A DNA stretch of 64,000 nt from Macrostomum lignano (Eukaryota): contig NIVC01000260.1 in the NCBI GenBank assembly GCA_002269645.1, forward strand, positions 588,461-652,460. The letters are read 5' to 3'. The notes beneath the pieces are model-generated. The model was given only the letters and a program-made list of their open reading frames with translations, was not told the DNA's origin and made no database searches. Numbering within the stretch: position 1 is the first letter of the stretch; each line of letters starts with the position of its first letter. Below are positions 10,074 to 49,590 of the stretch, one piece after another. The translations under genes and the position numbers were made by a program.

Positions 10074-10171
10074 TTGGCGATGCTTTGAGTCTAAAATAAT
10101 TGTCTCTGGAATATTATCTTCATATATAGAACCGACTGAATCACCTTAGAGCACATTAACAGTAGCTCGTA

Positions 10172-22390: not shown

Positions 22391-23118
22391 ACTCGCACAA
22401 CCTAAGAAGACGGTAAAGCAAACTTAAATTACAAAGTTGGAAACAATTGAAATGGTTTTAATTTTTTTGAAAAATATGCTATATAACTTTGGAGTTGTTT
22501 TGGTCTCAGTTGGATCGGTGAAAACTGCTTAGAGACGACTGCAGAAGTGCTCGGAGATTAGGGGTCATCTGCTCAGGGATTACGCAAAAAAGTGCTGGTG
22601 AACCATTGCTAAACTGTAGAAACCAAGGGCTGTCAATGGCGAGCTTAAACAAAAAAACAGTAGACACTAGACATCCAGACCAGCCAGACTATTGGAAACT
22701 CGTCGACTGGGTATTTAAGTTTCAGTTTTTTCATACATATAAAAATCAACAGAAAATGATCAACTCTTTAGGACTGCTAGACAGCTCACGGAGTACTGCA
22801 GAATCGCATTCTCTTCATGACAAATGCACTGAGAGCTTTAGCAACAACAGAAAGGTAAATAAAAAGGAAGAAAAGCGCTTTGAGCGTCTTTACTTGTTTT
22901 GCAAGCATCGATATTTGCGTAGGAATTTATTTGTTCGCTGGCTTCTGCTTACTCACCTGTAAGTGGCTTTTAAAAGGCTGATGTAACAAAACTTTTATGC
23001 CATAGCAACGCGGACTGGTCGCAAATCAGATACTCGTAAATTCCCGACTGTCTACAATGGAAGAGTTTTTTGGTAACTGCGTGCTCTTTGTCTGTGCTCA
23101 ACATTTAGCGACAATATA

Positions 23119-23691
23119 ATGCAAGTGCTTCTGATTTTAAGTGCTCAACTGCTCTGGGCTTCAGCTCAGCCGTGCCCCGCTCCGTTCCACCTCGAGGCCG
23201 GCAAGTGCCTATTCGTGAGCACAGTTCAGAGCCGCACCTGGTGCTCAGCAAATGAGCAGTGCAAATCTATCGGAGGCGAGCTCGTCAACTCGCACGACTC
23301 CATCAAGCTGCTACTCGGTCGAAATATTTCCAGTGCCAACTGCGGCTGCGACCTGTGGATCGGAGTGAGCGACCTGGCCGATGAGAGAGGCGGCAGCAGG
23401 GCCGGCTGGCAGAGGGTCAACGGCAACGGCCTGCTCCCGGATGACAACTCCATGTACTTATCATACAATCCTACTGGCTCAACAGGAGAAAACTGCCTGC
23501 GCATCAGGAGGGATGTCACTCTTGGTGACAAAAGGTGCCACTCTGTTCTCGGCTTCGTGTGCGAGTTTGTGAGTGAGACAGCCCGGCACCCTGCTACCGG
23601 AGTTTGGAAGGCCGCTGACTTCAAGCGAGAGCTGCACCACTCTGTGTACTGCTTCAGCGATGTGCCGAATGTGAGCAGCGCCATGAGGTGC
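23119..23691 (+). pseudogene. C-type lectin + PAN gene copy 5, 5' part (split by LINE; 3' part at 29589-29700)
   Basis: MQVLLILSAQLLWASAQPCPAPF...SSAMRC. The reading frame resumes after the LINE as TAAGMRAASCRHMLYNSKLRACR. Confidence 0.9.
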
Positions 23692-23788
23692 TTGACTTAC
23701 TTGACTTAGCTGCAGGGCTGTCCCGGAGGGGACACAGCGGGAAGGCGCGGGCGCCCATTCCGCTAGTCCCTGAACGGCCGACGCGTCG

Positions 23789-26700
23789 CTATGGACGGAG
23801 GGTTGGCGCCGCCCAGGGAGGTCCCCCAGTGTCGCCAGCAGCTATGGTGCTCTCTGGAAAGGAGAGTTCAGCCCTGCGGGTGGCCCGAAGGTAGCGCATG
23901 AGCTGATTAAAGTTTTCGGGTTTGCACGCTTCAGTAATAGATGTGTGTGGCCCGAGGTAAGTGAGTCTGGCCCGCGTGAAGGCGGGACAGATGCTGACGA
24001 AATGCTCAGCGGTTTCGTCACCTGAGTTGCAGAAACTACAGGTGGCGTTGGTGGCGTTGCCCTGCAGGTACTGGTGCCTGGAGAAGCAGCCGTGACCAGA
24101 GAGGGTCATGGTGGCAGCCCGGATGTCTCTGCGCGAGAGGCGCAAGAGGAGCTTCCGGAGCTGGTGAGAGGGCTGAGGGACAGCGCCTCTGGATTGCCTG
24201 CAGTTCGTGCGGTTCGCCCAAGTCGAGCGGTGCTGAGTCCTGATCCACGCTTTGATGCGCGAGTCGATGACACAGCCAGGAATCGGGACAAGAGGTTCGG
24301 GGCCGAGAGAGGAGCCGGAGGCACCAACTTTTGCAAGGGTGTCAGCGAACTCATTTCCTCGGATCCCCACATGCCCCGGAACCCACTTAAGGGTAATTTT
24401 GTTGGCGGAACCCAACACATTGAGGAGTTTGATACAGTCAAGGACTGTAGCAGAGTTGGTGCTGCAGCCACTGATGGCGTGCAAGGCAGCTTGGCTGTCC
24501 GAATGGAAAATGATGTTCTTACCAGTAACGCCAGTGGCGAGAAGCTCTGCAGTGCAGGAGCTGATGGCCAGAACTTCATTTTGAAAACACTGGAGTTGAC
24601 CCCAGTGTATTGAGCGTGGGTAGCGATGACCCTCCCGTTCAGAAAGATTCCAACACCAAAGCCGGTGTTGGCTGACTGCTTAGAACCGTCGGTGTAGCAA
24701 TGAAGCTCACCAGGGTTCCAATGGTCATTGATGTTATCGCGCGAGTCGATAGCTACGGAGTAGCGCTGTCTCAGGTTGAGCGTTGAGGCAATGCCATCGG
24801 TGAAGACGCGATTGGCCTGACACTCGTTGAGAAAGTTGAGGCACAGATCGCTATGCGGGACAAGGTTCCGCTTAGCAGGTGCTCTCATGTAAATGAATTT
24901 GACGCCGGCATCAATTAGACGCCGCGTCGTTCTAGCCGCCTCACCCCTGATGAAGAGGTCAAGAGGCGGAAGATTAAGAAAGGCCCCCATGCCAGCAAAG
25001 GGCGTGGACCTGGTGGCGTTGCAGATGAGCCTACACGCTCTGCCTTGGATCGTGTTGAGCAGGTCTGCATGGCTTTTGACCTGGGTAGCGCTAACCCAGA
25101 CAACAGAGGCGTACGTAATGGCAGGTCTAACTACGGAAGTATAGATCCACCAAAGCCGCTTTGGGGATAGACCCCAAGAAGTGCCAAGTGCTCGTCGGAG
25201 CTGGGCCAGGATGGCTGAGGCACGCTTAGCTTTTGCTTTCACGTGGAAGGACCAGTTGAGCCGGTGGTCAAGTGTGACCCCGAGACATCTGGTCTGGTGC
25301 GCGAAGGCAATATCTCTGCCGTAGAGCTGCAGAGGACGTATGTTCCAGCGTAGTCTGCTGGTAAACATAATGGCAACGGTTTTGGGCTCAGAGAGTTCCA
25401 AACCATTGTCATTGGCCCAGGATTCTGCTTTGCGGATAAAGCTCTGCATCAGATCCCTGAGCGTGCTGGGAGACGGTCCTGCCACAATGGCCGTGACGTC
25501 ATCAGCATACCCGACTTTGAAGACGGGGTCAGGTCGGGAGTCACTCAGAAGAGCGTCCATGACCAGGTTCCAGAGCGTCGGGGTGAGGACTCCGCCTTGG
25601 GGTCCACCCTTACAGACTCTGGTGGAGGCAGTTTGCCCAAGAAGTTGGGCAGTGACCGTACGGTTGGAGATCATGTACATGATCCACCGTATGAGGGTAG
25701 CATGAGCTTTGCGATTTTGAAGGGCCCTCTGAAACGCTTCAAAGATAACGTTGTCGAAGGCGCCAACAATGTCAAGAAAGAGAGCCAGGGCGTAACCGTC
25801 ACCCAGTACCGCCCGTTCAATCTTTTCGACAATCGCATGCAGGGCGCTGTCAGTCGACCTCCCGGTACGGAAGGCGTGCTGATTATTGCTGAGGGGCATC
25901 GCTGTCAGCTCGCAGGAGAGCAGCCGCCAGAGAATAAGCCTCTCAGTGAGCTTAAGCATTGCTGACGTTAAGCTAATTGGCCGGAAGGCCTTGACGCTTT
26001 GGTAGTCACCCTTCCCAGGTTTGGGAATAAAGACTACTCGAGCTTCAGTCCAGCTTTTGGGAACGTATCCCAGCTGGATAGAGGCCCGCATAAGATTGCG
26101 GGTGAGTCTCAGGAACGAGGGTATCTTGGCTGCTTCACGAAGGAGAACAGGGTAGATACCATCAGGTCCAGGAGATTTGAAGGGTTTGAAGGTTCTGACC
26201 GCACGAGCGATTAGGTCTTCAGTGACAATGCCCGCCGCTAGGGTGGCTCCATCCATCGAATGGTTGGGCTCCGGTCTAGCAGTAGGTACCCTCGGGAAGA
26301 ATGTGCTAAGCATATGCTGAAGCACTTCTTCAGGGTCTTTAGTAAGAGAGCCATCATCTTTTTTGATCATGGCTAATTTGGACATTTTGTCCATTGTAAG
26401 GGCCTTGACAAGCCTAGAAGTAGGTCTGTCTTGATCCAATTCATTGCAGAATTGGCGCCACTTACATTCCTTGGCCTTGCGCACTTCAGATTTGAAATTG
26501 CGGGAGGCTTGCCGGAAAAGCTCCATGTCCTCCGGGTTTCCGGTCTTCATGGCACGGCGATGAAGGCTTTTGGCCTTCCGCCTGAGTTTCCCCAGCTCCG
26601 GGTTCCACCACGGCGCCGAGGTCTTGCCTCTGTAGGCGCGAGCAGGACAAGCCGCTTCGTAGGCTGCAATAATGCAACCTGTCAGCGTCTCAGCCATATG

Positions 26701-27528
26701 ATCCACATCCTCGCAGGTCTCAATCGGACGTAAGTCCGTGAGTTCCTGCAGGTGCAGATCAAGGGCAGCCTTGTAGGCCGCCCAATCAGTGTTGCGGATA
26801 TTGCGTCTCCAAGTGATCGGAGACTGGGTTTTAGTGTCCGCGATATTAAAGGCAATAAAGCAGTGGTCAGACAGGGAGGGCTCCTCAGACCAGACTCTCC
26901 ACTCCTTGACTCTGTCAAAGAGTCTTGGGGTAACGAGTGTGGCGTCGAGGACCTCGGTCCATCTGCCATTATTAAAGGTAGGAGTGCTGCCGCGGTTGCA
27001 GAGCATGAGGTTTGTGTTAGAGATGAGGGCCAGAAGCTCCTCTCCTCTAGTGTTGGTATCTTTGCTGCCCCAGTGCTTGTGGTGCGCGTTGAGGTCGCCC
27101 CCTAAGCACAGCTCAGCGTTCTGGGACTCGCAGTACTGCGCAAGGCGCAGTAAACTCTCGGGAGCAGGGTCTCTGTCGCCTGGGATATAAACCGAGGCAA
27201 CAAGACACGTACGCGGAGAGAAATGATTAGATTGGATGACGCAAAGGTCTCCATCAGAGAGATCAGTCCTCAGCCAAGCCTGGAGATGGCTAGCAGCGAG
27301 GATAGCCGCTCTAGGGCGGCTGTTCCCCGGGCCACACACATAAAAATCAGAGTAGCCAGAGGGAATGTTGGGCAACTTACCGTTGCGCATCCAGGGTTCC
27401 TGGATCAGGATGAGGCCTGGCCTGTACAGCTCAGCAATCTTCATCAGATTTACTGACGCAGATACGCAATGCTGTAAATTTATTTGCAGACAGAATGTCG
27501 CTCCTTTGGCAGCGTGGAGCTTAGTCAT
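23789..27528 (-). CDS. LINE ORF2: AP endonuclease + reverse transcriptase + RNase H + C-terminal CCHC; one 1-nt frameshift near 24585
   Basis: QINLQH, IQEPW, GGDLNAHH, SLSDH (APE). KSPGPDG, FRPISL, QGGVLTP, YADD (RT). YTDGS, SDSQAAL, WVPGH.G..GNE.AD (RNase H). CSFC...ETAEHF..IC. Confidence 0.92.
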
Positions 27529-27551
27529 ACTGTATTAAATGCAATATCTGG

Positions 27552-29071
27552 CTAGAGCCCAGGGTCATCAAGGAGACTTGGACAACAGATCGTCCTCGTC
27601 CCAGGCCGCTGGGGCTTGACTGGGAGATGGGAGTTGGTCGACGTCCATGGCCTCCTCACCCCCACCGGCCCCCCAGCAGACTCCTCAGGCTCCGATGACA
27701 GGATGGAGGAAGCTTCCTCACCTGCATCTTTACCTTCAGACCCCACCAAGGTGGCCGAGGAGAGCTCGGATTCCGAAGACCCGGCCTCGTCCTCAACTCC
27801 TTCTCCGACTGGCAGGTTTGGTTCCCGGGGCTCGGCCGGAGCCGTTACCGCGGTCGCCGAACTGCTGCTAGCAGAGGGGCGAGATGCAGCTTTGGCTTTG
27901 GGATCGGCTTGCGCCTTTCCTTGGGCCTTAGACTGCGCCCCGCTCTTGCCGGAGATGCCGGGGTTGGCAGTAGCCTTCCCTTTGGCAGACTTTCCTCGGC
28001 GCAACTTGAGCTTGAGGGCACCCAGCTGGAAAGAGGATCCATTAGGGTACCGACTCGCCCAAGTGCTGGAAAGGCCGAGGACAATTGAGTTGCCCGTCTC
28101 CCCCCTGCGGACTTTACGGTGATACACCAGTCCACTAGCAGGGAGGTCGGGGTTCAGACGCAGTAGGACCCGGCGAATAACGTCTGGTCCAGCTGCGGTG
28201 CTCTTAGCAGGGACGAAAACCACATAGGGTATCGTCTTTGGACGCTGGCCCTCGCGAAGAAAAAGAGCTCCACCAAGGTCAGCATCCAAGGAGACCGTCG
28301 GTAGCCGCTGGAGCAGCCGCCGAGCGTCCTCCTCGCTGCTAGGAGCAATAAGAACGAATGTGCTTCGCAGCACCATCCGCTCAACGCCGATGGAGATTCC
28401 CTCCTCGACAGTCAGCTCAACAGATAGGAGTCAACAGCACTCCACACTTTTTGAAGCTGATCAGTGGTCCAGTCCTGGTCGCGACCTTGGATGATCACTC
28501 CCGGGATTTTGGCCTTGGCCTTCGCCGCAAAGGTAGCTCCCGAAGGAACCTCCTTGTTGGCAGTGGCCATTTGTTGCGCCGTGGTTTCGGCCTCAGCAGC
28601 CGCGGCAGCAGCTCCAGGGAGCGCCGCCGCTGAACTACTGGAGCTTCCACCGGCCGGCCCGCCTGGTTGCCTTGGGACTCCAGTCGCTTCAGCATCCATG
28701 GTGGACGCCGCCGCTTTGGCCCCCGCAGCTCCCTTCTTGGCCTGCCTTTTGGCGCGTTGTTTAGCGCGTTTGCGCTCAAGCCGAGCCCGCTGAGCTTCAT
28801 CGGATCTGCCAGATTTGGCCGGTCCTTTAGGCTCAGAGCTCGCGGTTCCCTTAGATCCACCAGCGGAGCTGGCAGGTCTTAGGGTGTTTTGAGTTTGGTA
28901 GCTCTGGTCGGATCTGCCAGCAGAGCCAGCCGGTCCTTCCTTTGCCACAGTTGAATCAGTCGGTTGGGATCTGCCAGCAGGGCCGGCCGGTCCTTCGGAC
29001 TGAGGTTGGGGTTTAGAAGGGTCCCCATCCCTAGAAATAGCTTGTTTATCCATAGTCGGCTCGAAGGCCAT
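27552..29071 (-). CDS. LINE ORF1 (basic, low-complexity); one 1-nt frameshift near 28417
   Basis: The ORFs at 28412-29128 and 27552-28376 join as ...DSYLLELTVEEGISIGVERMVLRS if one G is restored. Position upstream of ORF2 fits ORF1. Confidence 0.75.
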
Positions 29072-29588
29072 GATAGAAGGTTGGTGGGCTACCCTCAAAG
29101 GGGCGCGGTACCCACCCGGCCGCTCCACCTGACCGGGCAGTAGGCCAATAGCACCCTCAAGGCTGGCCCGACACCAGGAGGGGGACCGCTTGCGACCGGA
29201 CTACTCCCCGGCCTTCCAGCCCATCGGCACGGTCAACACCTTAGGCATTAGAGAGTACGTTGAGCAGTACCACGGCCTGCAGGTTGGCGAGCCAGACCCG
29301 CATACCCAAATTCGGCCGAAGCCACTGGATAGGGTCGCCAGCGCCGGAGCCCAGTCTGTCCAGCAGCCCTAGGGACTGCCTTGAACACACGCGGGGACGA
29401 GTACCCTGGGTCGACTTGCGAGACAGCGTGGGGGGGGGGTCTGCGGCTGCCAGAGGCAAATAGAGGGTGCAGACCTCCCACCAGCCTTGACCTGCTGAAG
29501 ATAGGGGCAGGCGTGAAGCATCGCAGACCTTAGCCCATGGGCCTAGTCTGTCTCATACTTCACTGGCATGCTGAATACGCCTTCGCGT

Positions 29589-30835: not shown

Positions 30836-33196
30836 TGCAGACTCCCGATCACTATTTGGCCCATATAATCTCAATCTCGCCAATATGCTGAGAAAGCTGA
30901 GAAACACACTGCTACTGTCAAACAAGAACCCAGAGAATACAGTGGAAGAATTCTGTAGCAAATTTTTAGTTGCTGTGAAAACCGCGTATGAAGCATACAT
31001 ATATGCACATGCCTGCCAGGCAGCTGTTCAAACGTTCATCGCTAGATTGGTACCGGAAAGAAGCAGCTGTTGAGGAAAATGAGATGTCAGTCTACTGCAA
31101 AACTGAATACAGTGTAACTGACAAGCACTCACAGCTGAAGAGATGTAATAGGAGCGCTTTCGGCTGCATAGCAACTAAGTTTCACATTCGACAAAAAGTG
31201 ACAAATGACAATGAGAATGAGCAGATGGTAGAGCTAAAGGATAAATTCGCGTCAATTAAATGCGACCTATTTATATCCGTACTACTATCTGCTTCTATTG
31301 ATACATTTCATGAAATTTTCGTTAGAAAACGTGACGTCATACGTCTGTTGATTAACTTCGATTTTTCTGGGGCTAAATATATGAAATAAAAAGAAATCAA
31401 TATTTCTGTGAAAAGTAAAACTTCCACTGCATAAAAACTATATAAAATATAACAGTGTAACATGTTGACGTGCATGCTAAATTAAAGTAATGGTAATATT
31501 CACTGCGCCAGATCAAATGCAATCATTGATTTTGTGATGAAAAATGATTTTTCCCCTTCTCCCCACTGTATTTTTTTCAGGAAATCGACCAAAAAATTTA
31601 CACGATCTTTGAGTTTTACGTCCAAGGACTACACAAAATACTAGTTGTTTACGTCCTGTTATACTAAAGTGGTCCTTGTGACACATACGAGTGCGCAAAC
31701 ATATGTGACAGTGTAGTTCGTAGAAGTATGTGTACCGTATTTCCTTATCTCGCATTCATACCATACTACTTGTATTCTTTAATTTATTTTAACAATATTC
31801 TATACGTATTATTATCGCACTTATGTTACTGTAAAGTGCTTTGTTTTTGTTGTGGATGTTGGTCTTGTAGGTGTTTTTGTCGCCTCGTATATGTATTTAT
31901 TTTATTATTTGTATTTCATACATACCGTAATTTTTCTCGTAAAGTAGTTCTATCTATGTACATGTACTGACGTTATGGTATTCTTGCACGATACTCATTA
32001 ATTTGTACATGTACGTTGCGCATGGGGGGCTTGTCTGGCTTTTGGATTAGGGGTGTTGTTATCTTATTTGTTTACCTACCAATTAAATATACACTTGCAG
32101 TCAGCGGCCGCTCTCTCCCTTCGCACCCTCTGCTTCGCTTCTCGCTCTAGGCTCGCGAACCCCTTAGCTATCCGGCCTCCTTGCCTCAACTCTCCCGCCG
32201 CCTACCTCGGCCCACCAGCCAATGAATCCCGATCTTTGCAAGGCATAACGATTCAAAGTAACGCTAAGGGTGAAAGCGGCTTGCCGATCTGCTAAATCTA
32301 AATCGTGAACTATCCAATTAACCGCTACACAAATGGTCTTCCCGCCTTTATTCGTCACACATAATACACTAAGCCTCGTCAAAAATTAAAACGGGATCAC
32401 AGCTGATTGCTAAAACAAGGCTAAGACTACGTATCGCGCCGTTAAGTGTTGATTTTCAGAATTCTGACGCAAAAAACGCAAATTATACTACTATCTGAAA
32501 ATGAAGTAAGTAGTATACGAAAACGGTATCCTAAGCGTGATATGCGTATATGTAGTCATATATGTACATTAATCTCACATATGTACATTAATTCCATGTA
32601 CATTAATCCCTATCTATCTCAAATTGGATATGTACATTAATTCCATGTACATTAATCCCTATCTCAAATGTCCATGTCTATCCCCAATTCTATATGTACA
32701 CTTACATTAATCTACAGTGTCATCCCCAGCGCGCGCCGCCCAAAATTACATGTACAATACTACATGTACGCAGAGGCGAGAATTACTAATCTCATCTACT
32801 ACCAAATGAGTCAACTAACCGTGTAGCGTACATCATGTATAAGTATTTACAATGAAGATATATTTACATTTAATCAGTAGCATATTACAGGAATCAAGAC
32901 ATGTACAGCATCACCAGCAAATAGAATATACAGAAAATTTTACATTGTTTTTCAATAATTTTCTCTTCATAAATGATTTTAAACAGGTCTGACATGCAAA
33001 ATATGTACAATAGATTTTTACATTGGCAATTTCGCCACACACAATACAAAAATGCTCTATGTACATTGAATTATATACAGCAAATAGATTCTGATAAATA
33101 CAGTAGTATTACAATGCAAATTATGTACAATAAATAGATTTTACTAATTTAATATTGCAAAATGTACATTGAATTGTCAGTCACAACTAGAATACA

Positions 33197-36100
33197 TTAT
33201 TTATAGCCATAAGGCCTGCTGCAGGTCCCGTACACGCGTTTCGTCAGGACGCGCTGAAACGTCTTGTCCATACCAACAGTGTGTATGGTGCAAGACGCCT
33301 TGTCGCGCCTGAACTGAAACTGCGGCAGCTGCAGAGAACCGCCGTGTAGCAGGGCGTTGCGCAGGTCGTCGCTGCGTTCCCGAATCTCCGGAGTCAGGCG
33401 AATGCCCTTGCATTTCAGGACCTGGCTCCCGACACCGGCCGCATCCTCGACAATGTAAGTGTAGAGCTTGGGCCCTCCACTTACAAAGTCGGTCATCCGG
33501 CTGCCTGCGGACACCTCGTCGGTCCACATTCCGAGGCTCGTGCCATGGGGCGGCTCCCATTGGCCCTCGGAATGCCGGTAAACGACCCTGGGTATGGGGA
33601 GAGAGATAATTAGTTCCACATGCCAACTATTCAATTCTAAAAGAATTTTTCCAATGCAATACTTACGAGTCAGTGTCGCAGTAAATGGCCCGTTCGCCGA
33701 GCCCCTCCAAGGCCTCGTACAGGCGCAGCCGGGCCTGCGTGGTTGTAAAAACCCCGATTGGCACATTAGAGTAGCGAAACGGCCGCTGATTAAAGTAGCG
33801 GTGCCGGTACTCTAGCAGCATAAACTCGCTGCCAATCGGTTCGCAGGCCTTGACTTTGAGGTTGGGGTCTGTCAGCCGGGCGAGCCAGTCCTCGTAGCTG
33901 GATACTATTTCTGTCGATGTCAGGTCGTCACGCTGACAAAATTTACCCCAGAGCCTGTGTGTTGTGAAAAGAAGTGCTACTGTTAGTAGAAGAAAATCAT
34001 TTAAAAAAACAGAATTTATAATTACTTACGAATTCAAAAAGATTTTCGCTACAAAGCGAAGTCCTGGGTTGGGCTCGACCTTGTCCAGCGTGACGCCCTC
34101 CTTTGCAAAGAAATCGGCAATGTAGGCGGCCTTGTCTTCATCCGACATGCCGGGGGAGCCGCTCGACTCAGCCTTCAGCTTGAGGAAGGTGCTAACATAG
34201 TCACTGAACAGGCCGGTCCGCTTCTCTGTCCAGTAGGCTAGCGCGTGCACCATCTGCAGCCGGTAGCCCAACTGGAAGGCCTTCCGCAGCTCCGGCGTGG
34301 CCCAGGTACCAGTCAGTGCCCGCTGCTCGTCTGAGTGGTCGCAGCACTCGTCGCCGCACTGCTGCTCCATACAGGTGCGGCAAAGCCCAAAAAAAAGCTT
34401 CTTTTGCACTCTGTACGGCAGCAGCGGAATGTGCAAATTTGACGGCGGCAACACAGTCACCTTGGCAATACCAAAGTAACTAGCCAGCGCGTCAGAATCG
34501 AGCACTTGCGGCGTCGGATGCTGCACCGGGTGGCCAATCGGGTACGGGTCCTTTGACTGCACCGTCGGGTACAGAGAGACCTGCCAGTTGAAATAAAACA
34601 TTATTTTCATAAACTGTATTTTTGCAAAATATTCTACTATATTAGTAGTATCACTACTCACCACATCCCGATATTTGAGAGTCTCAGTCTCGCTGGCCAC
34701 AGCATGCGGGATAAAACACTCTACGCGGCCGCCATAGAGAGCATCTTCCATCTTGAGCGGAGCGCGCAGATGTGCAGTTGCGGCAATGAAATCGGCCTGC
34801 GACGCCAATACAGTGTCGTATTCGTGCTCCCAAATGACTCGAACACTGTAATTGTGCCGCTCCAACTCGCGAGTAAACCACTCGGTTTCGTGGCGAATGT
34901 GGCTCAGAGGCTGCCGTTTCAGTGGGTGGACAGCATCCTGATCGGCATGCACTGCTCGCAGCCATGGTAGAAACAGCCATGAAACTGCAAGACAGTGTTG
35001 CTCGCCTCATCAAAACCATCCACCTTGCGGCCAAGAATGACAGCCTCGCCGTCAGTCGAGTCGCAGGTGCGCAGCCGCCCGCCAAATTCGGTGGCATTCA
35101 AATAGGTCAGCCACTTGCGCGCCTTGAACGATTGCTGGTCGGCCTGCCGGGCAATCACGCCGACCGAGTTGGGCTCCATAAATCGGGTGGTGAAAACGGC
35201 CATTGCCAAACTGGCAATCGTATTGGCCTGTACAAATGGTTCCAGGCCGTCGCAAATGTCTCCAATTATTGCCCTGTACTTGATACAGCCCTCGCGAAGC
35301 AGGACTGTGTCGCTCAAACAATAATCGAGATATTCCCGATTAAAGTTGAACAACTCGCCCTGTCGCGAGGCTAGCCAAGCACAGATTGAGTCATAGTCCT
35401 TGTTTGCTTTGCCGCCATAATATTCAATAGCCGGGTAGGAGCCCACGTAGTTCCAATTAGCCGGCTTGTTAAACTCGTGGGGAAACGTCCCCTTGGCCAG
35501 CTTTGTGTCAGCGAGCCCCAGCGCTTTTGGGAATTGCGCAAGCGGGATTGGTATGAAATTTAACGAATCTTTGAATACCAATTTATCCACCGTCATGCTC
35601 ATTAGCCGGCTGCCCTGGAACAGTACTTGTGGCCGCTTCTTGGCCAGGCCGTTGAGTAGAGCGCCAAGCAGTAGAAACGAATCGTAGCCTGATGCATTGT
35701 GCGCTACAACAATGGCGCCGCCTCGGAAAGCTGTGCTCAGCCAGGCGAAAAATGCATTTAGCGAGGCCGGGCCCACAGACACAAAATCGGCCATTTGGCA
35801 GGCGCAGTCTGAGTGGCTGACGCAATTGGAGAATTCCTCCCCCAGATCGCGGCCAGTCAGACAATTGGCGGCGCTATGCAGGCCATTGCAGAGGCGGCAA
35901 GTCTCGCGCGGAAACGCCCGGCCGGAGCAGGTCTCGCAGCACGTGACGGCAGTCACCAGGTGCACGTGATGCTGCTTCTCATCGTCCGTGTATGTTTCCG
36001 TATCGTAGAACACGTACGGCATAGTCGAAGCTTTCACTTTGGGAGCCTTGACGAAGCACAAATGCGAGCCGGCCTCGTCGTACTGTTTACACAGTGGGCA

Positions 36101-38698
36101 CTTGACATGGCCGCACTTGTGCTCCGGCTCCTTTTGACCGGCTTTCAGGTCTTCGCAATACCCGCAATTGGGGCAGACACGGGTTGAGCTGCAGCGTGAC
36201 CGCCCCGCCCGGTTCTTTCGGCGGTGGTTGTCGAAGCACTGCTGATTGTAGCACTTGAGGCCACAATCAGCACAGCGTTTGTAGTCACGCTGCAGGCTCT
36301 TGCAGTCGGTGCCGGGCACTTTGCATTGAGGGCAGGTGTTGGCACACTTGTGCTCTCTAGACTTGCAGTCGTACGGCTGCTGGCACCGGTCACAATAGCG
36401 GCGGGCACCAAAAAATGGCGGCACCTTGCACACTGCGTTAAAGTGCTCGCCAATTAGGTGCAAATTCAGCACTTCGCGGCCGGGCAGGGCATACACACAT
36501 GTATTGCCCTCCTCAGCACTGTATACCCGGACGCCGAAACCCCGGCCGGGTGACTGGGCGTTCAGGGCCGCGAGCAGTTGGGGAAGCACATCAACCCCGA
36601 ATGGCCCGTCCTGTGCAATGGTTGATAAAGACTAAAACATTTGTATATTAATAAAAATGCAAATTAAAATGTGTAAGATTATTTTTTACTCACCGAATAC
36701 AATTTGGCGGCAATCTGAAGTTCCCCAGTCAGCTTCGTCTGCAGTGGGGAGTCGGCCTTGATGGTCTGCCAAGTTTGCTTAGTGATGGCTTTGGCCTGCA
36801 GATCGGCAAAGGCCTTGGCCACCACCAGCGCTCGAATTAGACAGCGCTTGTCGCTGTTGGCGATGATGACATAATTGCGTCCCCCAATTGAATGCCGGGC
36901 CTGGATGTGACGCTCCGCCGCATCTAGGCTGCCGCAGCCGCCCCGCGGGACCCAGGCCTTGAGCAAAAACAATTTAAAGTTGTTGCCCAAGACACTGGAG
37001 TCCGACTGCAGCACCTTGTTTATATGCTTGAAGACAAGCTCTGCAGTGAAGCGGCTGCGGCGGACGGGCGGGACATTGATGGCGAGCATCATATTGTCCG
37101 CCGTCAGCTTAGATGCGACGAAGTCGTCGACATTCAGGTCGGCGCAGAGGGTTGCTATTACTTTCTCGAATGTGGCTCTAATATCGGTGAGTGCTGTGAA
37201 TGAGACTTCATACTCGTAGCCCTTGGCTCTAAATTTAGGCAGGGCTTTCGCCCCGCCAAGACGCGCAATGAAGCCTGAAAAAATGGAGGGTTTGAAATTA
37301 GAATTGCGAGTGAATGACTCATGAAATAAAATCAACTCCTTACCCTCGCCTTCGACAGTGTCGGGCTGGGGCGGGGGTTGAAATTGAGCCAAATCTGCAA
37401 TAAAATGCGCATGGTGACTAAAATTCTGACCGCTTGGAATTTTACAACTGTCAAAAATTTTTGATTGATTGCCTGCAGCAGCAGCAATTTTATCGCCCCA
37501 CCCCAAGCAACAAAAATCGGTGAGTTGTAAAAACCCCAACTCGGCACGTTCCGACACGTAGCAACAAAAGAAATGTGGGGTTGATTGACCCCCGCTTCGA
37601 ATTTTAGGCTGTCAAAAATGTTTGATTGATGACCCTGATAACACAGATCCTGCTGCAGCAGCCATTGTAAAATTTAAGAAAACCCCTATCAGCACGTGCC
37701 TCCATTGTGCCTCCTTGACACCTAGCAACAATACCGCGCGGCCGCTTTTGGATTTTTAAAGCTGTCTGATTAATAACCCTCACTGTAGCAGCCATTGCTG
37801 CCAAAACCCCTACAATTGCAGCGGTGATTACATCATCATGTCCAAAAATCGGGGGTTGATTTTATCACTGCCGCCTGCCCGCCCCCCCGCTGAGTCACGC
37901 GCGCGCTGCAGGATTGCTGTTTTTGCTTCTCTAGTTCAAGGATTAGTCACATAACCCCTGAAATTTTATGACTATCCTCTACAGGCATTATCTAGCTATA
38001 CTGCTGCTGCTGATATTCTCTAAAACTCTGTTATTTCAACAGGCCTGAATTTGAGAAATCCAGTTTCCTCCTTTTACTTCAACATCTATGTCAAGAAGAA
38101 ATTCAGAAATTTTAACCCAAAATGGATGCTAAAGATGAAAAGCAGCTGTGGTTTCAAAGAAAGCCCATATTTCAACAAGCGAAAAGTTTGCAAATCACAC
38201 TAATGCTAAAGCTGAAAAGCGCAGTTATACAACCCTATTTTTCTAATTTTAGATTTTGCAAATGCTAAAGATGAAAATAATTGAGGCTAATGAATAAAAA
38301 GCAGTTTTTCAGAGAGTCCTATTATTTCAATAAGCTGAATTTACAGTTTGCAAAGCAACTCTGAATGCAAAGGGTGAAAAGCAGTTTTACAGTGGGGCCT
38401 CCTATTATTTCAATAAGCCTTATTTTGAGTTTGCGAAAGCCAAATGAATGCCAAAGATGAAAAAGCAGTTTTTACAGAGAACAGCCCTATTTTATTCAAT
38501 AATCCCGAATTTGGAGTTTCGTAAAAGACAAAGACGAAAAAGAAATTTTTACACAGACTTGCAATACTCACCTAGCGGGCGTCCTCTCTTTGTGGCCGGA
38601 GGCTGATGCTGTTGTTGCTGCTGCTGCTGTTGTGAGGGGCCTGCTCGCCCCCACAGGGCTGAAATGGCGGCTTCAGCGGCTGAACGCTTCGATGCCAT
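33197..38698 (-). CDS. Protein-primed family B DNA polymerase, 7 exons, ~1319 aa, one 1-nt frameshift near 34945
   Basis: Exons 38698-38572, 37394-37344, 37274-36694, 36631-34662, 34580-34030, 33954-33667, 33587-33197. All introns are GT-AG and phases are consistent. Motifs: Exo YDTETY, AHNASGYD, FKDSLNF, YCLSDT; Pol LYGGRVE, DVVSLYP, KIFLNSLWGKF, YCDTDSVVY, KR...PYGY. Confidence 0.9.
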
Positions 38699-38834
38699 TG
38701 TGATGCTGCTGATGCTGCTGATGCTGGTGTGATTGTGGCTGCTGCTGCTGCTGCTGTTGTTGCTGATGCTTCTGTTGTGGCTTCTGCTGCTGCTGGCTGC
38801 TTCTGCGGATGCGGCTGCAGCAGCTCTCACCCGT

Positions 38835-38842
38835 TTTATATA
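38835..38842 (-). promoter_or_regulatory. TATA box of the pPolB gene
   Basis: TATATAAA on the minus strand ~140 nt upstream of the ATG, followed by a CAG-rich leader. Confidence 0.55.
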
Positions 38843-41800
38843 CCCCGCAAGAGGGAGGGTGGGGTAGGGGCACGAGAATTGTGCGTGATTTTCTTTCCCG
38901 GGTCTATATTCTCCAGATTAGTGTACGATTGAACACTCGGTTCCACATTTGGTATAGAAAATTTGGGGGTCGAAAATAAAATACCCCACCAATTCTTTTC
39001 TCATGCGGTATTTTATTGGATCTGAGCGTAGCCAGCCAACCGGCACTCTCGCAGGAGTGAAAATTGCTACAGAGTACAGTCTCTCAAAGAAGAAGACCGC
39101 TTCCTCTTGCAGCATGTCTTTTCGACTTGAATCGGATAGAAAACGGTGTTTACCCAGAAAATAATTGGCAGAAGTTGACCAATAATAGCTGAATACAGAT
39201 GAAAAATATGAAAGATGACTTCTGTGTTTTTTAAGGCCCGCAGGTCTCTGCGAGAAAATGGTTGTTAAAAATCGCTGTATCAATTTAATAACCTGGGAGA
39301 AATGGGGTTTGTGTGCAAAGCATCTGATTAACAGAGGCTCGGGGAAGAGTAATAGTCGATGAAAAGCTCTTGCCATCATCTAAAATATCCATCAAAGAGT
39401 AATAAAGGTGACAGCCCCTGTCTCGAGCCAAATCAGACAGACAGAGTTTTCTACTTCTGTTTACGTAATGTTTAGGGATGGACCTGGGGTTATAGGGACA
39501 GAGAATCAGTTATGGAATTTACGCGGTAGTAAAGAATTGCCTTGGTGTGGCTGGGGTAGGTGTTGTTCTCTCCATATTGGCGAACATTAATTGTCCTGGG
39601 TTGAATTTTGAATATGGCTAGAATGTATAGCGGAGAATCGTTGAATTGAGTGATTCAACATGCAAAGTATTCAACAAAACCGATTCAGTGCATCAAAGAG
39701 GCTGTTGTGAGCTTCAGAACAGAGAATAACGTTTAAAATAGCATCAATGGCATGATTTAGTAATCGAAATCAATTGAATGCCGAAAACTTTAAGTTTAAT
39801 AGCAGACTGTGTTTTTAGCCCCAATTTTTACAGTGTCTATAGAATATTTCCCCAGCTTCTTGGGCAATATACATGCCTATTTGAATGACGAAACAGCATT
39901 TGTGATGCTTTATTAGCTAAAATTATTATTTGGGGTCAGTCAGTTATATTGAAAAAATGACAGATTTCGATTCATAAAGTAAGCATTTTAACGTTAAGAA
40001 TCGAAAAATGAGAAAACTCGTGTTTTTCATTAAAAAGTTTGCATTTCTATTTTTTTTACCATTCATCAACTATTTCTTGGGCTGGGCTGGCTTGTGGACT
40101 TCCGTGTGGGATTCATTCCTGCTTCGAAGCCGTCTCAAGTAAAGTTGAAACGGCATTTGGACAAATTAGCTGTTGAAATGATGGTTTCCAGTGATGAAAT
40201 TACTGATTTTGATCAACAAAGTCTAACTTGAAACGGTAAAATTAAAGAAACTGGAGAAAACTCGCCTTTTATGAAATGTGCTTTTTACGAGCTAGTAATT
40301 TAGCTTTTAATAAACTTGGACGGAATTCCAACTTGGAGAGGTCAGTGGGTGATTCATTCCTGCTTCGAGAGATCGAACTTTCATAGAGTCTGAAAGCTTG
40401 AAGTGAGAGGGCAGGGGAAGCGATAGAATTGACATAGCCGCACGTTTTTGGGCGGGTGGACTTCACTACTTCTAGTATACCGCATTGGTTATAGTGCCAA
40501 AGTATTTCTGTGACAAAACACATCTATAGAATTCAGTCTCGGAATTGTATGCAGAGGAGACACTGATTCATAGGCTGTGTACATTGACAGATGCAGCTGG
40601 GGTTTGTCAATGCAGGTGGAGGTTGACTCGGATTTGCCCAGATTCGTGGGGTTGATATGTGCATTAAAGTTAGTTTCTTGCTAACTGGGGGCGGCATGGA
40701 TGACGTAATTGGATAAGAGGGGTTTTGCTGAATGAGGTTTAATTTAAGGTCCGTGCTGTCAAAAGATCTGTTTGTACACTGAAATGGAGAGAGGGGTTGG
40801 AATTCCTTGGCATTTAGAAGGGTGACAGAGAGAACAGGGGCGAGTGGTTCAATTCGATTTGCTATAGGGGTCTGCACTGTGTCTGGTAAACATCGGAGGG
40901 GTGGCTGTTTTCGAACAGGGTTGAATTTTGAATATGGCCAGAGATAAAGGGTGATTCAACATGCAACATAATTAATTCCATAGTGTACACCAGCGTCAGT
41001 GGCACATTTTGCGGATTACAGCGCGACAAGGGGTCTTGTATCATCTGCACTATCAATAGATATATAAAACATTGCTTTCACAGTCTTGATTTAGAGGCCA
41101 ACTAAATAAATATATACGTATCAAAGCTCGGCCGGCTTTTTGTGTAAATATATATACGTCTTTTGACAACTTATTTGACTCGGGTAGAGGCATTGGGAAT
41201 GACGTAATTGTCTCGGAGTGGTGACGAGGGCTGAATTCTAGAGGTATGAAGTATAAAACAAGTGGAAATAACAGTGTGGACCGCGATTTTTGGCTGACTC
41301 ATGCCTCCTCTGCCAATTTTGGGGGATGGGCGGCGGTTTCTGCGTACACTGTTTGCTTTCTGTGGATCAGCAGATCATGAAGAGTTAATTCTTGGATGTG
41401 CGGCCACTTTGCAAATTTTGGGTATAATATCAATATGGGTGGGTGGGCGCTTCTGCATGCTGTTTCAACTATTGAAAACTCATTTGGTAATAGTAGATGA
41501 GATTGTACAGCGCGCGCGTACACCAATTCTCACCTCTGCGCACAACTGTACACACGTAGTAGGGTTTCGAGTTGTACATGTAGTCTTGGTGATTCATACG
41601 CAGAGCGCGCGGGCCGTCTGGGGATTAATGTATGACACTGTACATGTAGAAGTGGATTAATGCACATGTATGTACTGTGTACATATAGAATTGGGGATAG
41701 ACATGGACATTTGAGATAGATAGGGATTAATGTACATGGGATTAATTTACATATCCATTTTGAGATAGATAGGATTAATGTACATATGTGAGATTAATGT

Positions 41801-42620
41801 ACATATACGACTACATATACGCATATCACGCTTAGGATAGCGTTTTCATATACTACTTACTTCATTTTCAGATAGTAGTATAATTTGCGTTTTTTGCGTC
41901 AGAATTCTGAAAATCAACACTTAACGGCGCGATACGTAGTGCTAAGATACATATTTATAGAAAAAAACATTGGCTCCAGCTGAGAGGGACATAACCCCCT
42001 TGTCCTCCCCCTGGATTGGCCACTGGGTAGTAAGTCACGGGCCGGGCTAAAATATTCTATTTTGATGTGCTGGTTAGGCCGGAAAAATTGGAAGCATTTA
42101 GTTTTTATTATTATATTTTTCGACCTTTCTTACAAATATGTAACAAGAATAAAACAATTTTTATTTTATTACAGTTTCACAAAAGCTTAACAAAATCAAC
42201 TTTGTTAGGTTACAACAAAATAGTAAACATGCTTAGTTTAAACTTTAAGTCTGTCGTTTCGCGGAAATGTCGTTAAAAGTTTTTTTTGACAGCCTTACGT
42301 TCTAGCTCGCTTTAGTGTCATATGAGTGTAGTTTAGTGTTAAAAATTGTGCAACTTTTATTAGCTATTAGATTCAAAATGTTTTAAACCAGAATTACCTC
42401 TCTCAGGGTTTAAAGGGCTCCAATATACAAGAAGTTACAATGCCTCGTTTCCAAAAATTTGAATACTAACTAGATGCATTGTGTAGAATTTTAGGTGCAA
42501 TTGCACCTAAAATATTATCCTGGGTGCAAATTTAGTTTTTTGTACTGTAATTTGTAAAGCTTCAACCTATTTTTTTTAATTTGCAGCCTAAACTTGAATT
42601 CTATGCCTATTTATTTTTAA

Positions 42621-46290: not shown

Positions 46291-46706
46291 ACCAACCAAG
46301 TTCTATTGATTATAATTTTTGCAGCAAACTATAATGAATAAAATCTTTATGGAAATAAAATAAGGCTTCTAAGTAGAAGAAGGACAGCATCTTAATGCTG
46401 CCTAACTGATCCCAAAAAATTTGATCTCAACCAATCTCTAGTTCTATTGTAACTTTATTTACTTAGCTTTGACTGGTATAAAGTTGTGGTGTACTTCTGT
46501 ACAAAATCACAATCTTTTTAATTTCGATTTTTGGTTAGTCTCAATTGTGGTTGACTAATCAGCTAATGAATAATTCATTAGGTATTCTTTAATATTCTGT
46601 GCCATTTTTTCAACTAGCAAAGGTTTCCAGTCCAGGTGCTTGAAATCGCACTTATATAATATAGCAGTCCATGAACGGAACCCGACTTTACTGCTGAAGC
46701 CTGTCA

Positions 46707-48739
46707 ATGGAGGACTCGAACGATAGCGCCAGCAGCGAGGGCAGCAGCAATTCCTCGTCAAATGTTGGCCTCGTCATGCACGGAGCCGGAGGAGCCACCG
46801 GCTGTGCACCGGGTGGTCGTGGCGGCGGCGGCGGGCCTCGGGACCAGGAGACGCTGGACAAGGAGCGCTACGCTCGCGAGAGTCACTGCGAGATCGAGCG
46901 CCGCAGGCGCAACAAAATGTCGGCGTACATTGGCGAACTGTGCGACATGGTGCCCAGTTGCGCGAACTTGGCGCGCAAGCCGGACAAGCTGACCATTCTG
47001 CGCATGGCTGTGGCGCATATGCGCGGCCTGCGGGGCACCGGCAACACTGGAGTGGACGGCACCTATAAGCCGTCATTTCTAAGCGATTTGGAATTGAAGC
47101 ATCTTGTGTTGGAAGCCGCAGACGGGTTCCTGTTCGTGTGCCAGTGCGACACGGGCAGGCTGGTCTACGTCAGCGACTCCGTTAGTCTCGTGCTCGGCCT
47201 CAGCCAGGCTGAATGCTATCAGCGACCGCTGTACGACCTGCTGCACCCGGACGACAGGGAGAAAGTTCGTGACCAGCTGGCCTCGGCTGATCCGGCCGCT
47301 GCTAGGGTGCTGGATCTGAAAACTGGCACGGTGAAGAAGGATGGCTACCATGGTGAGGGCTGTTGGAAGTGCAGATTTTTTAATTTCGATACATATCGGT
47401 AGCTTTGTTATTCCATAAAAATCGATACATATCGGCAAACATATTATTTTATAAAAATCGATACATATCGGTAAATATAATATTTTATAAAAATCTATAC
47501 ATATCGGTAAATCTATTATTTTATAAAAATCAATACATACCGGTAGTTTTATTATTCCATAAAAATCGATACATAATCAGTTAGCTTTTTTATTCCATAA
47601 AGTTGTTTTCGATACATATCGGTAGTTCCTTATGTGATGTGTATCAAACGTAATTTTACGGAATTGGTTAGTTTTTTGTTTTTAGTCCACTGTATTAAAA
47701 GTCATACGGTATGGAGAGCAAAATTACTTAGTTATGATAAATGTAAATTTCTATACATATCGGCAAATGCTCACGATTTTAGCCCACATGCGCAGCACTA
47801 TGGGCGCCAGGCGCTCATTTATGTGCCGGATGCGAATTTGCCCGCCGGATGCGCAACATCCGCAGCAGCCGCCTCATCAGCGCCAGCGCCAGCGGACTAT
47901 GCTGGCCCCATCAGCTGACGGTCAGCAATACGTGATCGCCCACGTGTCCGGCTATTTGAAACAGTGGCCAGCCTCTCAGCAGCATCATCATCAGCAATCG
48001 GACGATATTGTCGGAGACGCTTCCGGCGCGTCGGTGCCGCACTGCCTGGTGGCTCTGGCCAGGCTGCAGCCGACCGCGCTGCCTCCGGATCTGCCGCATC
48101 AGCAGCCGCAGTCGCAGCAGCAGCAGCAACAGCAGCAGCTCATGCTCATGATGGGCGCTCTCGGCCAGTCTCAGTCCGAGTTCGTTCTGCGAATCGGCCC
48201 GCCCGCTGGCCAGCCTGCTGAGGGCGCCGATAGCGGCGAAGGTCCCGATCCCACCGTGGTGACGTTCTGCGATCAGCGCGTCACAGCTGTTCTCGGCCAC
48301 CGGCCGGCGGATCTGGTTGGCCGGCCACTGTCCGAGCTGGCCGCTCCCGGGGACCGGGCCAGGCTCCGGGCGGCCGCTGTGGCTGCTGCAGCCAGCCGAG
48401 GGCAGGTGAGGCATCTGCGTTTGTTGCTACTCTTCCTAGCTGATGGCGCCAGCATCCGATAAGTTAAGCAGAGCTGGCAGCGGTTAGTGCAGGCACGCAC
48501 TCATACACGCTCACACAGGGTGTACAGCGGCCCTGACTGTCTAATCGTCAGGCATGTGCACTCTCTGTGCCTTTGCTGGTCGGCCCTCTTGGTTGTGAAT
48601 CCCGGCACAGCCCCTGATGAATGCGGCCGCGCACAGGCAGCCATTGTGAGCGAGTAGCAAATGTTAGCTCAACTCTGTAGTAGAGCTGTGCCGGGATGTA
48701 AATATGCAGGCAGACAGACACGCAGACAGACAGACACGC

Positions 48740-48776
<37 letters not shown>

Positions 48777-48833
48777 CACAGACAGACAGACACACAGACA
48801 GACAGACACACAGACAGACAGACAGACAGACAC

Positions 48834-48864
<31 letters not shown>

Positions 48865-48899
48865 CAGACAGACAGACAGACACACAGACAGACAGACAC

Positions 48900-48930
<31 letters not shown>

Positions 48931-49590
48931 CACAGACAGACAGACACTGACATCAAGTCCCCATCAATTTCCCAGGCTCAATGCGCCGCTGCCTGCCGGT
49001 TGCGCACCGCCGCTGCAGCCAGCTCGGACGCCGCTGCCGAGTACCGGCAGGTGCACTGCAGCCTGGCCGCTTTTCACAACCCCTGCTCCGACGAGCTGGA
49101 GTTCCTGCTGTGCACCTGCGCCAGTGCGGTGCCAACAACGCCGCAGCAGCAGCCTCCGCAGCCGCACGCAATGATGGAGCACCCGCATCAGGCTCTGGAC
49201 AGCTGCTGGCAGCAAACTACTGCTGCCTACGATTATTGCTGGCAGCCTCAGCAGCCCCAGCCTCTCATGCCCGACCAACTGCAGCATCCGATGCAGCCGC
49301 ATCTCCAGCATCATCCTGGGCAGCAGCCGCCGCCGCAGCTGCACCACCAGCAGCTCGCCCAGCATCACGGGTTGCCCTGGCAACAGCACCAGCATCAGCA
49401 AGATTATTCATCTTCGCCGTTGCAGCACCAGCCGGAGCTGGCAGCTGGTGCCGCCGGTGTGTCGCCGGATTCTGACGCCGCCGCTGCCGCCGCCGCCGCT
49501 GCTGCCGCCGCCGCAGCAGCCGATGTTGTATCCTGCCTGTACCAGCAGCAGCAGCAGCAGTACCACTCAGCTGACTCCGCTCTGCCCTAG
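46707..49590 (+). CDS. arnt: ARNT/tango-like bHLH-PAS transcription factor, 3 exons (46707-47352, 47783-48405, 48976-49590), ~627 aa
   Basis: b[30 protein letters not shown]...[32 protein letters not shown]...DLKTGTVKK...[16 protein letters not shown] ...[16 protein letters not shown]-rich tail. Intron phases consistent. Confidence 0.9.
47388..47765. repeat. Imperfect tandem repeat (aaaatcgatacatatcggta) in ARNT intron 1
   Basis: Read directly from the sequence. Confidence 0.8.
48711..48948. repeat. (GACA)n microsatellite in ARNT intron 2
   Basis: Read directly from the sequence. Confidence 0.95.

Follow-up and report, generated by a model that had tools for sequence, protein, structure and literature searches.

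The window, a 64,000-nt stretch of the Macrostomum lignano genome, contains a 9,515-bp element with terminal inverted repeats (TIRs), an exact 6-bp target-site duplication (TSD) and a single intron-split gene, that of a protein-primed DNA polymerase (pPolB). This element is likely the polymerase-only half of a pair of segments, P and S, which have common 27-nt tips and together form one bipartite Polinton complementing in trans. Such a two-segment Polinton arrangement was not found in the literature searched. A sequence-only reading of the window had described the 9.5-kb unit, its TIRs, its GCTAAG duplication and pPolB as its only recognizable gene, and had proposed that it inserted with these ends. 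This description stands: sister copies are not full-size Polintons but the same 9.5-kb unit with TSDs of their own. Features are listed in Table 1.

Table 1. Features of the element, in window coordinates.
Feature	Position	Strand	Basis or remark
Left TSD copy, 6 bp, GCTAAG	32420..32425	.	sequence; empty paralogous sites
Left TIR	32426..32701	+	outer 175 nt (32426-32600 vs 41766-41940) 97% complementary; full length 276/264 nt at 91%
Hypervariable terminal cassette (nt 6-27)	32431..32452	+	from pool common to S1 integrase/capsid segment
pPolB predicted exon 7, incl. stop codon	33197..33587	-	
pPolB predicted exon 6 (polymerase motif C, YCDTD)	33667..33954	-	
pPolB predicted exon 5 (SLYP half of motif A; KIFLNS of motif B)	34030..34580	-	
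pPolB predicted exon 4 (putative vOTU His, Cys-rich region, exonuclease motifs, inserted nuclease-like domain; frameshifted)	34662..36631	-	
pPolB predicted exon 3 (N-terminal region at terminal-protein position; putative vOTU Cys)	36694..37274	-	
pPolB predicted exon 2	37344..37394	-	gene model
Predicted intron 1 with degenerate ∼80-bp repeats	37395..38571	-	gene model, sister comparison
pPolB predicted exon 1 (start codon, poly-Q, basic motifs)	38572..38698	-	gene model
TATA-like run, candidate, near pPolB exon 1	38834-38842		by eye
Right arm, non-coding	38900..41676	.	∼75% like arms of gene-less palindromic satellites
207-bp block	41102..41308	+	82% identical to block adjoining right TIR of S1 segment
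Right TIR	41677..41940	-	inverted match to left TIR
Right TSD copy, 6 bp, GCTAAG	41941..41946	.	sequence

The element ends in 5'-ACTAC, versus the 5'-AG of vertebrate Mavericks, and the first 16-19 nt of its cassette are those of C1313, a copy of segment S1. The empty target site that the earlier reading had suggested seeking exists in two paralogous forms (L102 and L103, flanks ∼91% identical), in which the flanks are joined with one target hexamer; the same junction occurs in one contig of public run X3. Three of four public runs cover all 30 bins of the element. In exon 4, at ∼34.9-35.0 kb, the window copy carries a frameshift that 18/18 compared copies lack; private to this copy, it may be a sequencing error. 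This frameshift, like the perfect palindromes among related elements, is what an assembly artefact could leave behind; that the element is such an artefact, or a one-off deletion within a single canonical element, is nevertheless highly improbable; for the unit as a whole this is refuted by the presence of the 9.5-9.7-kb polymerase unit in six unrelated insertions. The empty sites and the coverage in public runs argue in the same direction, as do the TSDs of 56 family elements, 53 of them distinct and 55 perfect over 6 bp in a screen that tolerated one mismatch. The window copy itself would be a dead or mis-assembled member of the PC4-less subfamily of P1, the lineage-1 polymerase segment.

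Within the element, a PF03175 match on two frames identifies pPolB, the only gene detected. The gene model comprises seven predicted exons and six GT-AG introns, running from 38698 to 33197 on the minus strand. The exonuclease and motif A residues are conserved in an alignment of 70 pPolB sequences, and Cys232 and His315 are invariant in 70/70 rows; this pair is a putative vOTU Cys/His, by its motif and the description in PMC11161782. Exon 3 is homologous to the N-termini of other pPolBs and has a predicted fold with pLDDT 80-90, for which neither sequence search nor the predicted fold gave a PDB match. Structure prediction for a sister gene model returned phi29 polymerase as the best fold match. 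The exon-4 insert resembles in its motif, and may correspond to, the VSR endonuclease domain of pPolB2 (Jeong et al., 10.1101/2023.08.22.554363). No splice joint was present among the 15 of 52 joints listed from contigs of the four public runs, a result neutral on expression.

Probes from Polintons of the same genome detected no integrase, major capsid protein (MCP), minor capsid protein (mCP), protease, ATPase, PC4 or TBP gene in the element, nor any integrase or capsid remnant in the right arm, where the earlier reading had proposed to look for them. This arm occupies the place of a PC4-like gene in other polymerase segments. Against ten sisters it carries 13.1 gaps/kb, of which 40/266 are multiples of three, compared with 0-3 gaps/kb in exons 3-7; by this gap density and scarcity of in-frame gaps, it behaves as non-coding. 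Its open reading frames were rejected as genes, since more than 90% of their length is open in only 0-3 of 6-10 matching sisters.

All genome counts derive from one M. lignano assembly. In it, sister pPolB loci number about 40, and a complementary ∼10-kb element lacking a polymerase occupies about 60 loci. Segment P (9-10.5 kb) carries pPolB, with a PC4-like gene added in most lineage-2 and some lineage-1 copies. Segment S (10-10.5 kb) carries an rve integrase (PF00665), minor and major capsid proteins, a protease, an ATPase, a TBP-like gene and small core-type ORFs; no helicase or other replicase gene was detected on it. The MCP has database matches named F54H12.2-like and a predicted double-jelly-roll structure, and mCP, ATPase and protease are assigned by motifs and likeness to the monopartite Polintons of the same genome. 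The two segments insert separately, each with its own 6-bp TSD. Among 56 TSD-bounded elements with family ends, drawn from 92 loci chosen from matches and thus a non-random sample, pPolB is present in 18, the integrase/capsid set in 20 and neither in 16; no element combines the two family sets, and the remaining two, apparent exceptions, are hosts of nested foreign Polintons. MCP, mCP, ATPase and protease are present in 20/20 S and 0/18 P elements. Conversely, an unfiltered 70-sequence pPolB profile, which detects the distant pPolBs of C2529, C1680 and C106, finds none in the 20 S elements. Genome-wide, at least 64 S loci and 107 P loci have only three contigs in common, with spacings of 49, 165 and 468 kb. 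In a comparison family defined by another MCP, 4/4 loci carry pPolB and capsid genes together.

The split is present in two lineages, P1/S1 and P2/S2. Within lineages, dN/dS is 0.13 (P1) and 0.13 (P2) for pPolB, 0.20/0.06 for MCP and 0.19/0.14 for the integrase; between lineages it is 0.03-0.11 with pS of 0.66-0.82 on both segments. Judged by these ratios, both gene sets are under purifying selection. The S1 ATPase value of 0.71 is probably due to frameshifted copies. Synonymous sites are saturated between the lineages, and the two lineages are old.

These data bear on whether a full-length Polinton outside the assembly (exogenous, lost or collapsed) gave rise to P and S as two families of defective elements and mobilizes each of them as a helper. 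The family clearly generates non-autonomous and palindromic derivatives, Polintons without polB occur beside complete ones in Pieris (10.1101/2025.02.07.637071), and two of the genome-wide locus searches covered 97 of 533 candidates in one case and 121 of 1613 in the other. We nonetheless consider this explanation unlikely: scoring of the full set of 138 pPolB candidates placed none close to an S locus, the same clean split recurs in two lineages saturated at synonymous sites, purifying selection on both halves is unexpected for passengers of a helper, and the P and S TIR bodies differ, which derivatives of one parent would have in common. The earlier suggestion of a deletion derivative likewise finds no full-size parent. 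Four candidates (C2285, C485, C583 and C1945) owe their size to inserts with reverse transcriptase or unrelated ORFs, the Polintons nested in C271 and C106 end in AGTAGT and are bounded by TIRs and TSDs of their own, and C56 has no Polinton gene. An rve match near C471 was rejected as a family integrase, having a retroelement-type frame only 28% like the S integrase.

The tips connect the two segments. All family ends start with ACTAC among the ends listed (45 and 121 further ends lie outside this set), and in the same set nt 6-27 differ at 8.2 of 22 positions between P1 and S1, 8.3 within P1 and 8.2 within S1; the lineage-2 values are 8.5 (P2-S2), 8.6 and 8.5. Both ends of C513 are classed as P1 in this comparison, though that element is gene-less. 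Across lineages the mismatches rise to 14.6-16.3, with a minimum of 9-12, again among the ends listed, which also include identical 27-mers in both segments. Four-gamete pairs (99/153 and 89/136) mark the tips as mosaic. Within a lineage, one hypervariable and mosaic pool thus supplies the terminal 27 nt of both P and S. Hybrids occur as well: C1438 combines a P1-type end with an S1-type end within a single TSD, and C356, C816, C1588 and C1705 have S1 TIRs on P1-like arms. Beyond 31 nt, the P and S bodies are almost without common sequence, amounting to the 207-bp block in lineage 1 and to no block found in lineage 2, and TIR nt 28-50 group S1 with P2, not P1. From these two observations, tip pairing is not the sole signal and partners may be reshuffled. 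Gene-less palindromic satellites occur with the same family ends; perfect palindromes such as C301 are possible long-read artefacts.

The earlier reading had also proposed that the polymerase-only element takes its integrase in trans, which agrees with its lack of one and with the integrase on S beside the same terminal 27 nt. Its further proposal of a satellite or capsid-less lineage fits less well, as the element that would supply the integrase is itself incomplete: it has the full set of virion genes but lacks a polymerase. The dependence is probably mutual. One-way dependence would instead make S an autonomous capsid-coding integrator copied by a host or other Polinton polymerase, and P a selfish satellite, similar to a linear plasmid, that borrows tips to exploit the S integrase and capsid. 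The abundance of S despite the lack of a detected replication gene, the unrelated bodies, the S1-P2 tie at nt 28-50, which implies that tips can be captured, and a quick tip turnover suited to a helper-parasite race are all compatible with it. Yet the only Polinton genes missing from S are pPolB and PC4, exactly the two that P holds; PC4-like genes adjoin the integrase in other Polinton families of this assembly, as expected if P and S had one ancestor. Moreover, linear TIR-bounded DNA without a replicase needs a protein-primed polymerase reading its ends, and the monopartite Polintons seen in the assembly end in AGTAGT. We therefore hold one-way dependence to be quite improbable.

Under the bipartite reading, pPolB with its N-terminal terminal-protein/vOTU region would prime and copy linear DNA ending in the origin of its lineage; since any DNA with that origin would serve, both segments would be copied. 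The S integrase would recognize the common ends and insert both P and S. During strand-displacement replication, single strands could pair via their TIRs and switch templates, which would homogenize both ends of a molecule, swap tip blocks between segments, and yield hybrids and palindromic gene-less satellites. P, S and many satellites are of similar size, which suggests a packaging limit near 10 kb with one segment per particle. Complementation, virions and expression are all inferences. A broader proposal, to which we give even chances, is a bipartite or multipartite double-jelly-roll dsDNA animal virus with separately packaged, separately integrating ∼10-kb segments, in which a 27-nt tip code, diversifying through the shuffling of blocks and parasitized by gene-less satellites, keeps the two lineages separate.

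Polintons/Mavericks (Polintoviricetes; adintoviruses) are described in the available parts of PMC11161782 and PMC8097293 as having pPolB with vOTU, rve integrase, double-jelly-roll MCP, mCP, protease, ATPase, TIRs and a 6-bp TSD. P and S jointly hold this complement, including a putative vOTU Cys/His of pPolB. Unlike in Polintons/Mavericks, the set is divided between two separately inserting elements, with no integrase or virion genes beside pPolB, the ends are 5'-ACTAC instead of 5'-(AG)3 or (AGT)2, pPolB has six introns, the tips are hypervariable and S carries a TBP-like gene. The TIR-bounded, amplifying Polintons without polB of Pieris mannii and other insects (10.1101/2025.02.07.637071) resemble segment S; however, closely similar complete Polintons there keep polB, the loss coincides with a LINE or LTR insert, and the available text describes no complementary polymerase-only element. 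Bidnaviruses and Drosophila Vesanto virus, as presented in the accessible parts of PMC8502044 and PMC8363768, have segmented genomes, a Polinton-derived pPolB and matching segment termini. The P/S pair, known here from assembled sequence, is similar in these respects, but those viruses are described as having ssDNA, a parvovirus-type capsid and no integrase, whereas P/S keeps the Polinton virion module, with its modeled double-jelly-roll MCP, and an integrase on S, with both segments integrating. Fungal and plant linear plasmids are, in the portion of PMC11161782 at hand, TIR-bounded and capsid-less with pPolB as the main gene, as is segment P; they are cytoplasmic or mitochondrial, whereas P is nuclear, with spliceosomal introns, 6-bp TSDs and a capsid-coding partner. 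The same portion of that source describes Tlr1 elements, with an rve integrase, and Polinton-like viruses as having a capsid module without pPolB. According to it, a helicase or other replicase takes the place of pPolB in these, in contrast to S. Complementary gene sets on separate elements with common termini are a trait of multipartite viruses, and P/S has it.

Many eukaryotic dsDNA viruses trace back to Polintons, which are treated as single molecules and defined by the presence of pPolB together with an integrase. To our knowledge, a segmented form in this group has been seen only after the shift to ssDNA in bidnaviruses. A stable two-segment form would mean that the step from monopartite to segmented is possible inside Polintons with the virion module kept. 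One survey kept only integrase-linked pPolBs (10.1101/2023.08.22.554363), and surveys so restricted would miss split systems of this kind; 'fragmentary' Polintons known from elsewhere may likewise be segments. With its two matched lineages, whose tips are distinct and vary naturally, this laboratory flatworm makes several questions testable: the nature of the Polinton origin and of the integrase site, the need of particles for selection on capsid genes, and the distinction between segments and satellites.

Database searches returned few relatives. No relative was found among viral contigs, the S ORF o268 had no match in Atlas, the S protease none in a PDB sequence search, and a PHROGs search gave nothing beyond Fic-like matches. 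Metagenome contigs yielded one 7.2-kb relative at 28%, with MCP and protease only, and three MCPs matched at 78-81%, all on contigs shorter than 4 kb that offer no gene context.

The window element is a real feature, the polymerase (P) segment of a likely bipartite Polinton. Its TIRs are 97% identical over 175 nt (91% over 276/264 nt), GCTAAG flanks it on either side, and PF03175 is matched in two frames, which bears out the sequence-only reading of a TIR-bounded unit with a 6-bp TSD and a pPolB gene. At two paralogous sites elsewhere both flanks are joined directly, with no element between them. The gene, as predicted from splice-site motifs, comprises seven exons and six GT-AG introns, with exon phases in agreement except at exon 4, which is frameshifted. 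Because this frameshift is private to the window copy (absent from 18/18 copies compared), the copy is dead or mis-assembled. Its right arm is non-coding, judged by gap pattern, and a probe search there matched no integrase, capsid, protease, ATPase, PC4 or TBP, in line with the claimed lack of integrase and virion genes. The closest database proteins are Macrostomum lignano entries; the next relatives, sharing 30-43% identity, form a large pPolB family.

Searching the genome with the window TIR gave 217 candidate matches, of which 40 were scored. Five pPolB sisters (contigs C566, C1159, C1485, C1300 and C2757) are collinear with the window element, span 9,486-9,698 bp and each have their own TSD; this polymerase-only layout (family P1) is therefore the transposing unit. 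The pPolB sisters share the layout and are not full-size Polintons, the extra length of longer copies being unrelated inserts. The polymerase-only unit thus stands, whereas its reading as a satellite, capsid-less lineage or deletion derivative gives way to more than was first seen, a segment of a likely bipartite Polinton. A second pPolB family, P2, is 64-72% identical to the window and forms TIR elements of 8.8-10.1 kb. A PC4-like gene lies opposite pPolB in 7/7 P2 loci examined and in five P1 loci, including the complete 10.4-kb C1263; in the window subfamily this position is taken by a satellite-like arm. PC4-like gene clusters, 76-85% like the P1 type, also occur on C1753 and C1176, contigs on which no pPolB match was found. 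P1 copy C2285 contains an insertion of an element similar to the window's LINE-type retrotransposon.

A sister pPolB gene model (pLDDT 79) has phi29 polymerase as its first structural match, and a Cys/His pair is invariant in 70/70 homologues. The invariant pair and the phi29 match are as expected for the terminal protein-vOTU-polymerase layout described in PMC11161782. The vOTU, VSR-like and catalytic motif labels for pPolB are not based on a domain match; they are general background or come from the literature, namely PMC11161782, PMC8502044, PMC8363768, PMC8097293, 10.1101/2023.08.22.554363, 10.64898/2026.10.13.758929, 10.1101/2025.04.19.649669 and 10.1101/2025.02.07.637071.

An exact search with the first 16 nt of the window element led to contig C1313, which codes for integrase, the capsid proteins, protease and ATPase but lacks a polymerase. 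Its major capsid protein (MCP) has at least about 60 close loci among the matches listed, which fall into two subfamilies at around 99% and 88%. The MCP is modeled as a double jelly roll, and its top matches are the capsids of PBCV-1, iridovirus and virophage. These integrase/capsid (S) elements are TIR-bounded, 10-10.5 kb long, with 6-bp TSDs and a single gene order. All 20 examined carry a TBP-like ORF (Atlas 0.95; PF00352 in a 63% homologue), for which 20/21 PDB matches are TBP (best E 0.017); no paper with both Polinton and TATA-binding protein was among the matches listed. A Fic-domain ORF (PF02661, E 7e-14) adjoins the left TIR in S2 and was not found in S1 copies.

The two gene sets are strictly partitioned in the elements surveyed. 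At the 92 loci examined, 56 elements are bounded by family ends and a TSD. Lineage 1 contributes 12 P, 12 S and 14 gene-less elements; lineage 2 contributes 6 P and 8 S elements, 2 without genes and 2 apparently mixed. Loci were picked from search matches, and since the 56 elements show 53 distinct TSDs, haplotype duplicates may account for some copies. The apparently mixed elements were rejected as such: each hosts a nested foreign Polinton that has AGTAGT ends and a TSD of its own (32 kb in C271, L111-L115; 12 kb in C106, L108-L110); the 32-kb one has an integrase with a PLA2-like match and an Adeno_PX-like match. No family element among the 56 carries both halves; a full-length helper that has gone unseen is considered improbable. 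An unfiltered pPolB profile, which does detect the distant polymerases of C2529, C1680 and C106, found none in 20/20 S elements. Genome-wide, at least 64 S and at least 107 P loci (97/533, 121/1613, 119/156 and 138/138 candidates scored) have three contigs in common, with P and S 49 kb or more apart. A third MCP family served as control: 4/4 of its loci proved to be ordinary monopartite Polintons, whose pPolB is unrelated. C2529, C84, C424 and C1680, together with the 33-37% integrase matches, represent several further many-copy monopartite families in this genome.

All family ends begin ACTAC. Nucleotides 6-27 of the tips vary widely, yet S bodies differ by 2-6% at synonymous sites. Across 33+14+14+12 ends, mismatch in these 22 positions is 8.2/22 for P1-S1, equal to the within-class value, 8.5/22 for P2-S2, and 14.6-16.3 (minimum 9) across lineages, so the tips appear to pair P and S halves within each lineage. 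Identical 27-mers occur on P and S (e.g., S2 copy C181 and P2 loci C211 and C845), the two ends of most elements carry one and the same variant, and variants are mosaic (four-gamete site pairs 99/153 and 89/136). Counting against a simple story, TIR nt 28-50 cluster S1 with P2 across lineages (L069, L045), which suggests an old end exchange. P and S bodies have one 207-bp block in common and nothing else. C1438 combines a P1-type and an S1-type end inside one TSD, and four gene-less elements have S1 TIRs on P1-like arms; these hybrids show physical exchange between P and S. Nt 6-27 (32431-32452 in the window) differ by ~37% between copies with genes a few percent apart, and 7/18 and 9/17 variable tip sites switch between complementary bases. 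Lineage 2 elements start ACTACT and finish AGTAGT, the mirror of AGTAGT...ACTACT in other Polintons here.

Pooled pairwise NG86 dN/dS on natural open frames (pairs not independent) is 0.13 for pPolB in P1 (13 copies) and P2 (7). For lineages 1 and 2, respectively, it is 0.20 and 0.06 for MCP, 0.19 and 0.14 for integrase, and 0.33 and 0.17 for protease; S1 ATPase stands at 0.71, probably because some copies are broken. When the lineages are compared with each other, pPolB has a pS of 0.73 and the S genes have 0.66-0.82; dN/dS, where computable, is 0.03-0.11. Low dN/dS in both halves and high between-lineage pS show that both have been kept functional in parallel for a long time. One-way parasitism is rated slightly less probable still than an unseen helper. 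Two gene sets on two elements, common and exchanged tips, separate insertion and selection on both are observed, and P and S are probably two components of a bipartite Polinton. In such a system, pPolB would copy both P and S starting from the tips, the S integrase would insert both, and panhandle template switching could mix tips and yield palindromic satellites. Packaging may set a size limit near 10 kb: P needs ~4 kb of coding sequence yet is 9-10 kb long. In other Polinton families here a PC4-like gene lies ~1 kb from the integrase, which suggests a single ancestor whose replication genes and integration/virion genes came to lie on separate segments. Searches of open full-text literature turned up no account of a bipartite Polinton or of the Macrostomum elements described here. 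The nearest precedent, in 10.1101/2025.02.07.637071, is of polB-less Polintons beside complete ones; it differs in keeping those complete Polintons.

Coordinates of features in the window and in related loci
Feature	Location	Strand	Remark
Window element (P1)	window 32426-41940		
pPolB gene	window 38698 -> 33197		
LINE-type retrotransposon (endonuclease, RT)	window 24106-29200	-	
665-aa single frame, Cys-rich N-terminus	window 11829-13826	-	transposase-like by eye; no Pfam match
Three paralogous intronless C-type lectin frames	window 3751-4620, 9357-10145, 23077-23709		one with PAN match
bHLH-PAS host gene	window 46698-49590	+	ARNT-like by eye; ~5 kb from insertion
TBP-like ORF	L051:7942-8475 (S2); L021:7317-7907 (S1)		20/20 S elements
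Fic-domain ORF (S2)	L051:5603-6406		
PC4-like gene clusters	C1753:124-212 kb; C1176:223-238 kb		
C126 satellite	L015:4548-9275		

The gene-less elements are long palindromes of 4-14 kb in which no ORF is conserved, and palindromic derivatives are seen of S1 (C1313) and P1 (C3085/C4430). A near-perfect palindrome (99.7%) makes up the 9.56-kb gene-less satellite of C301 (L085), and C362 (L017-L019) has three additional right ends with a 9.86-kb period inside one TSD; these two structures could partly be assembly artefacts. The C126 satellite bears an insert that contains two frames, of 769 aa and 542 aa; a CIDE-N domain lies in the shorter one.
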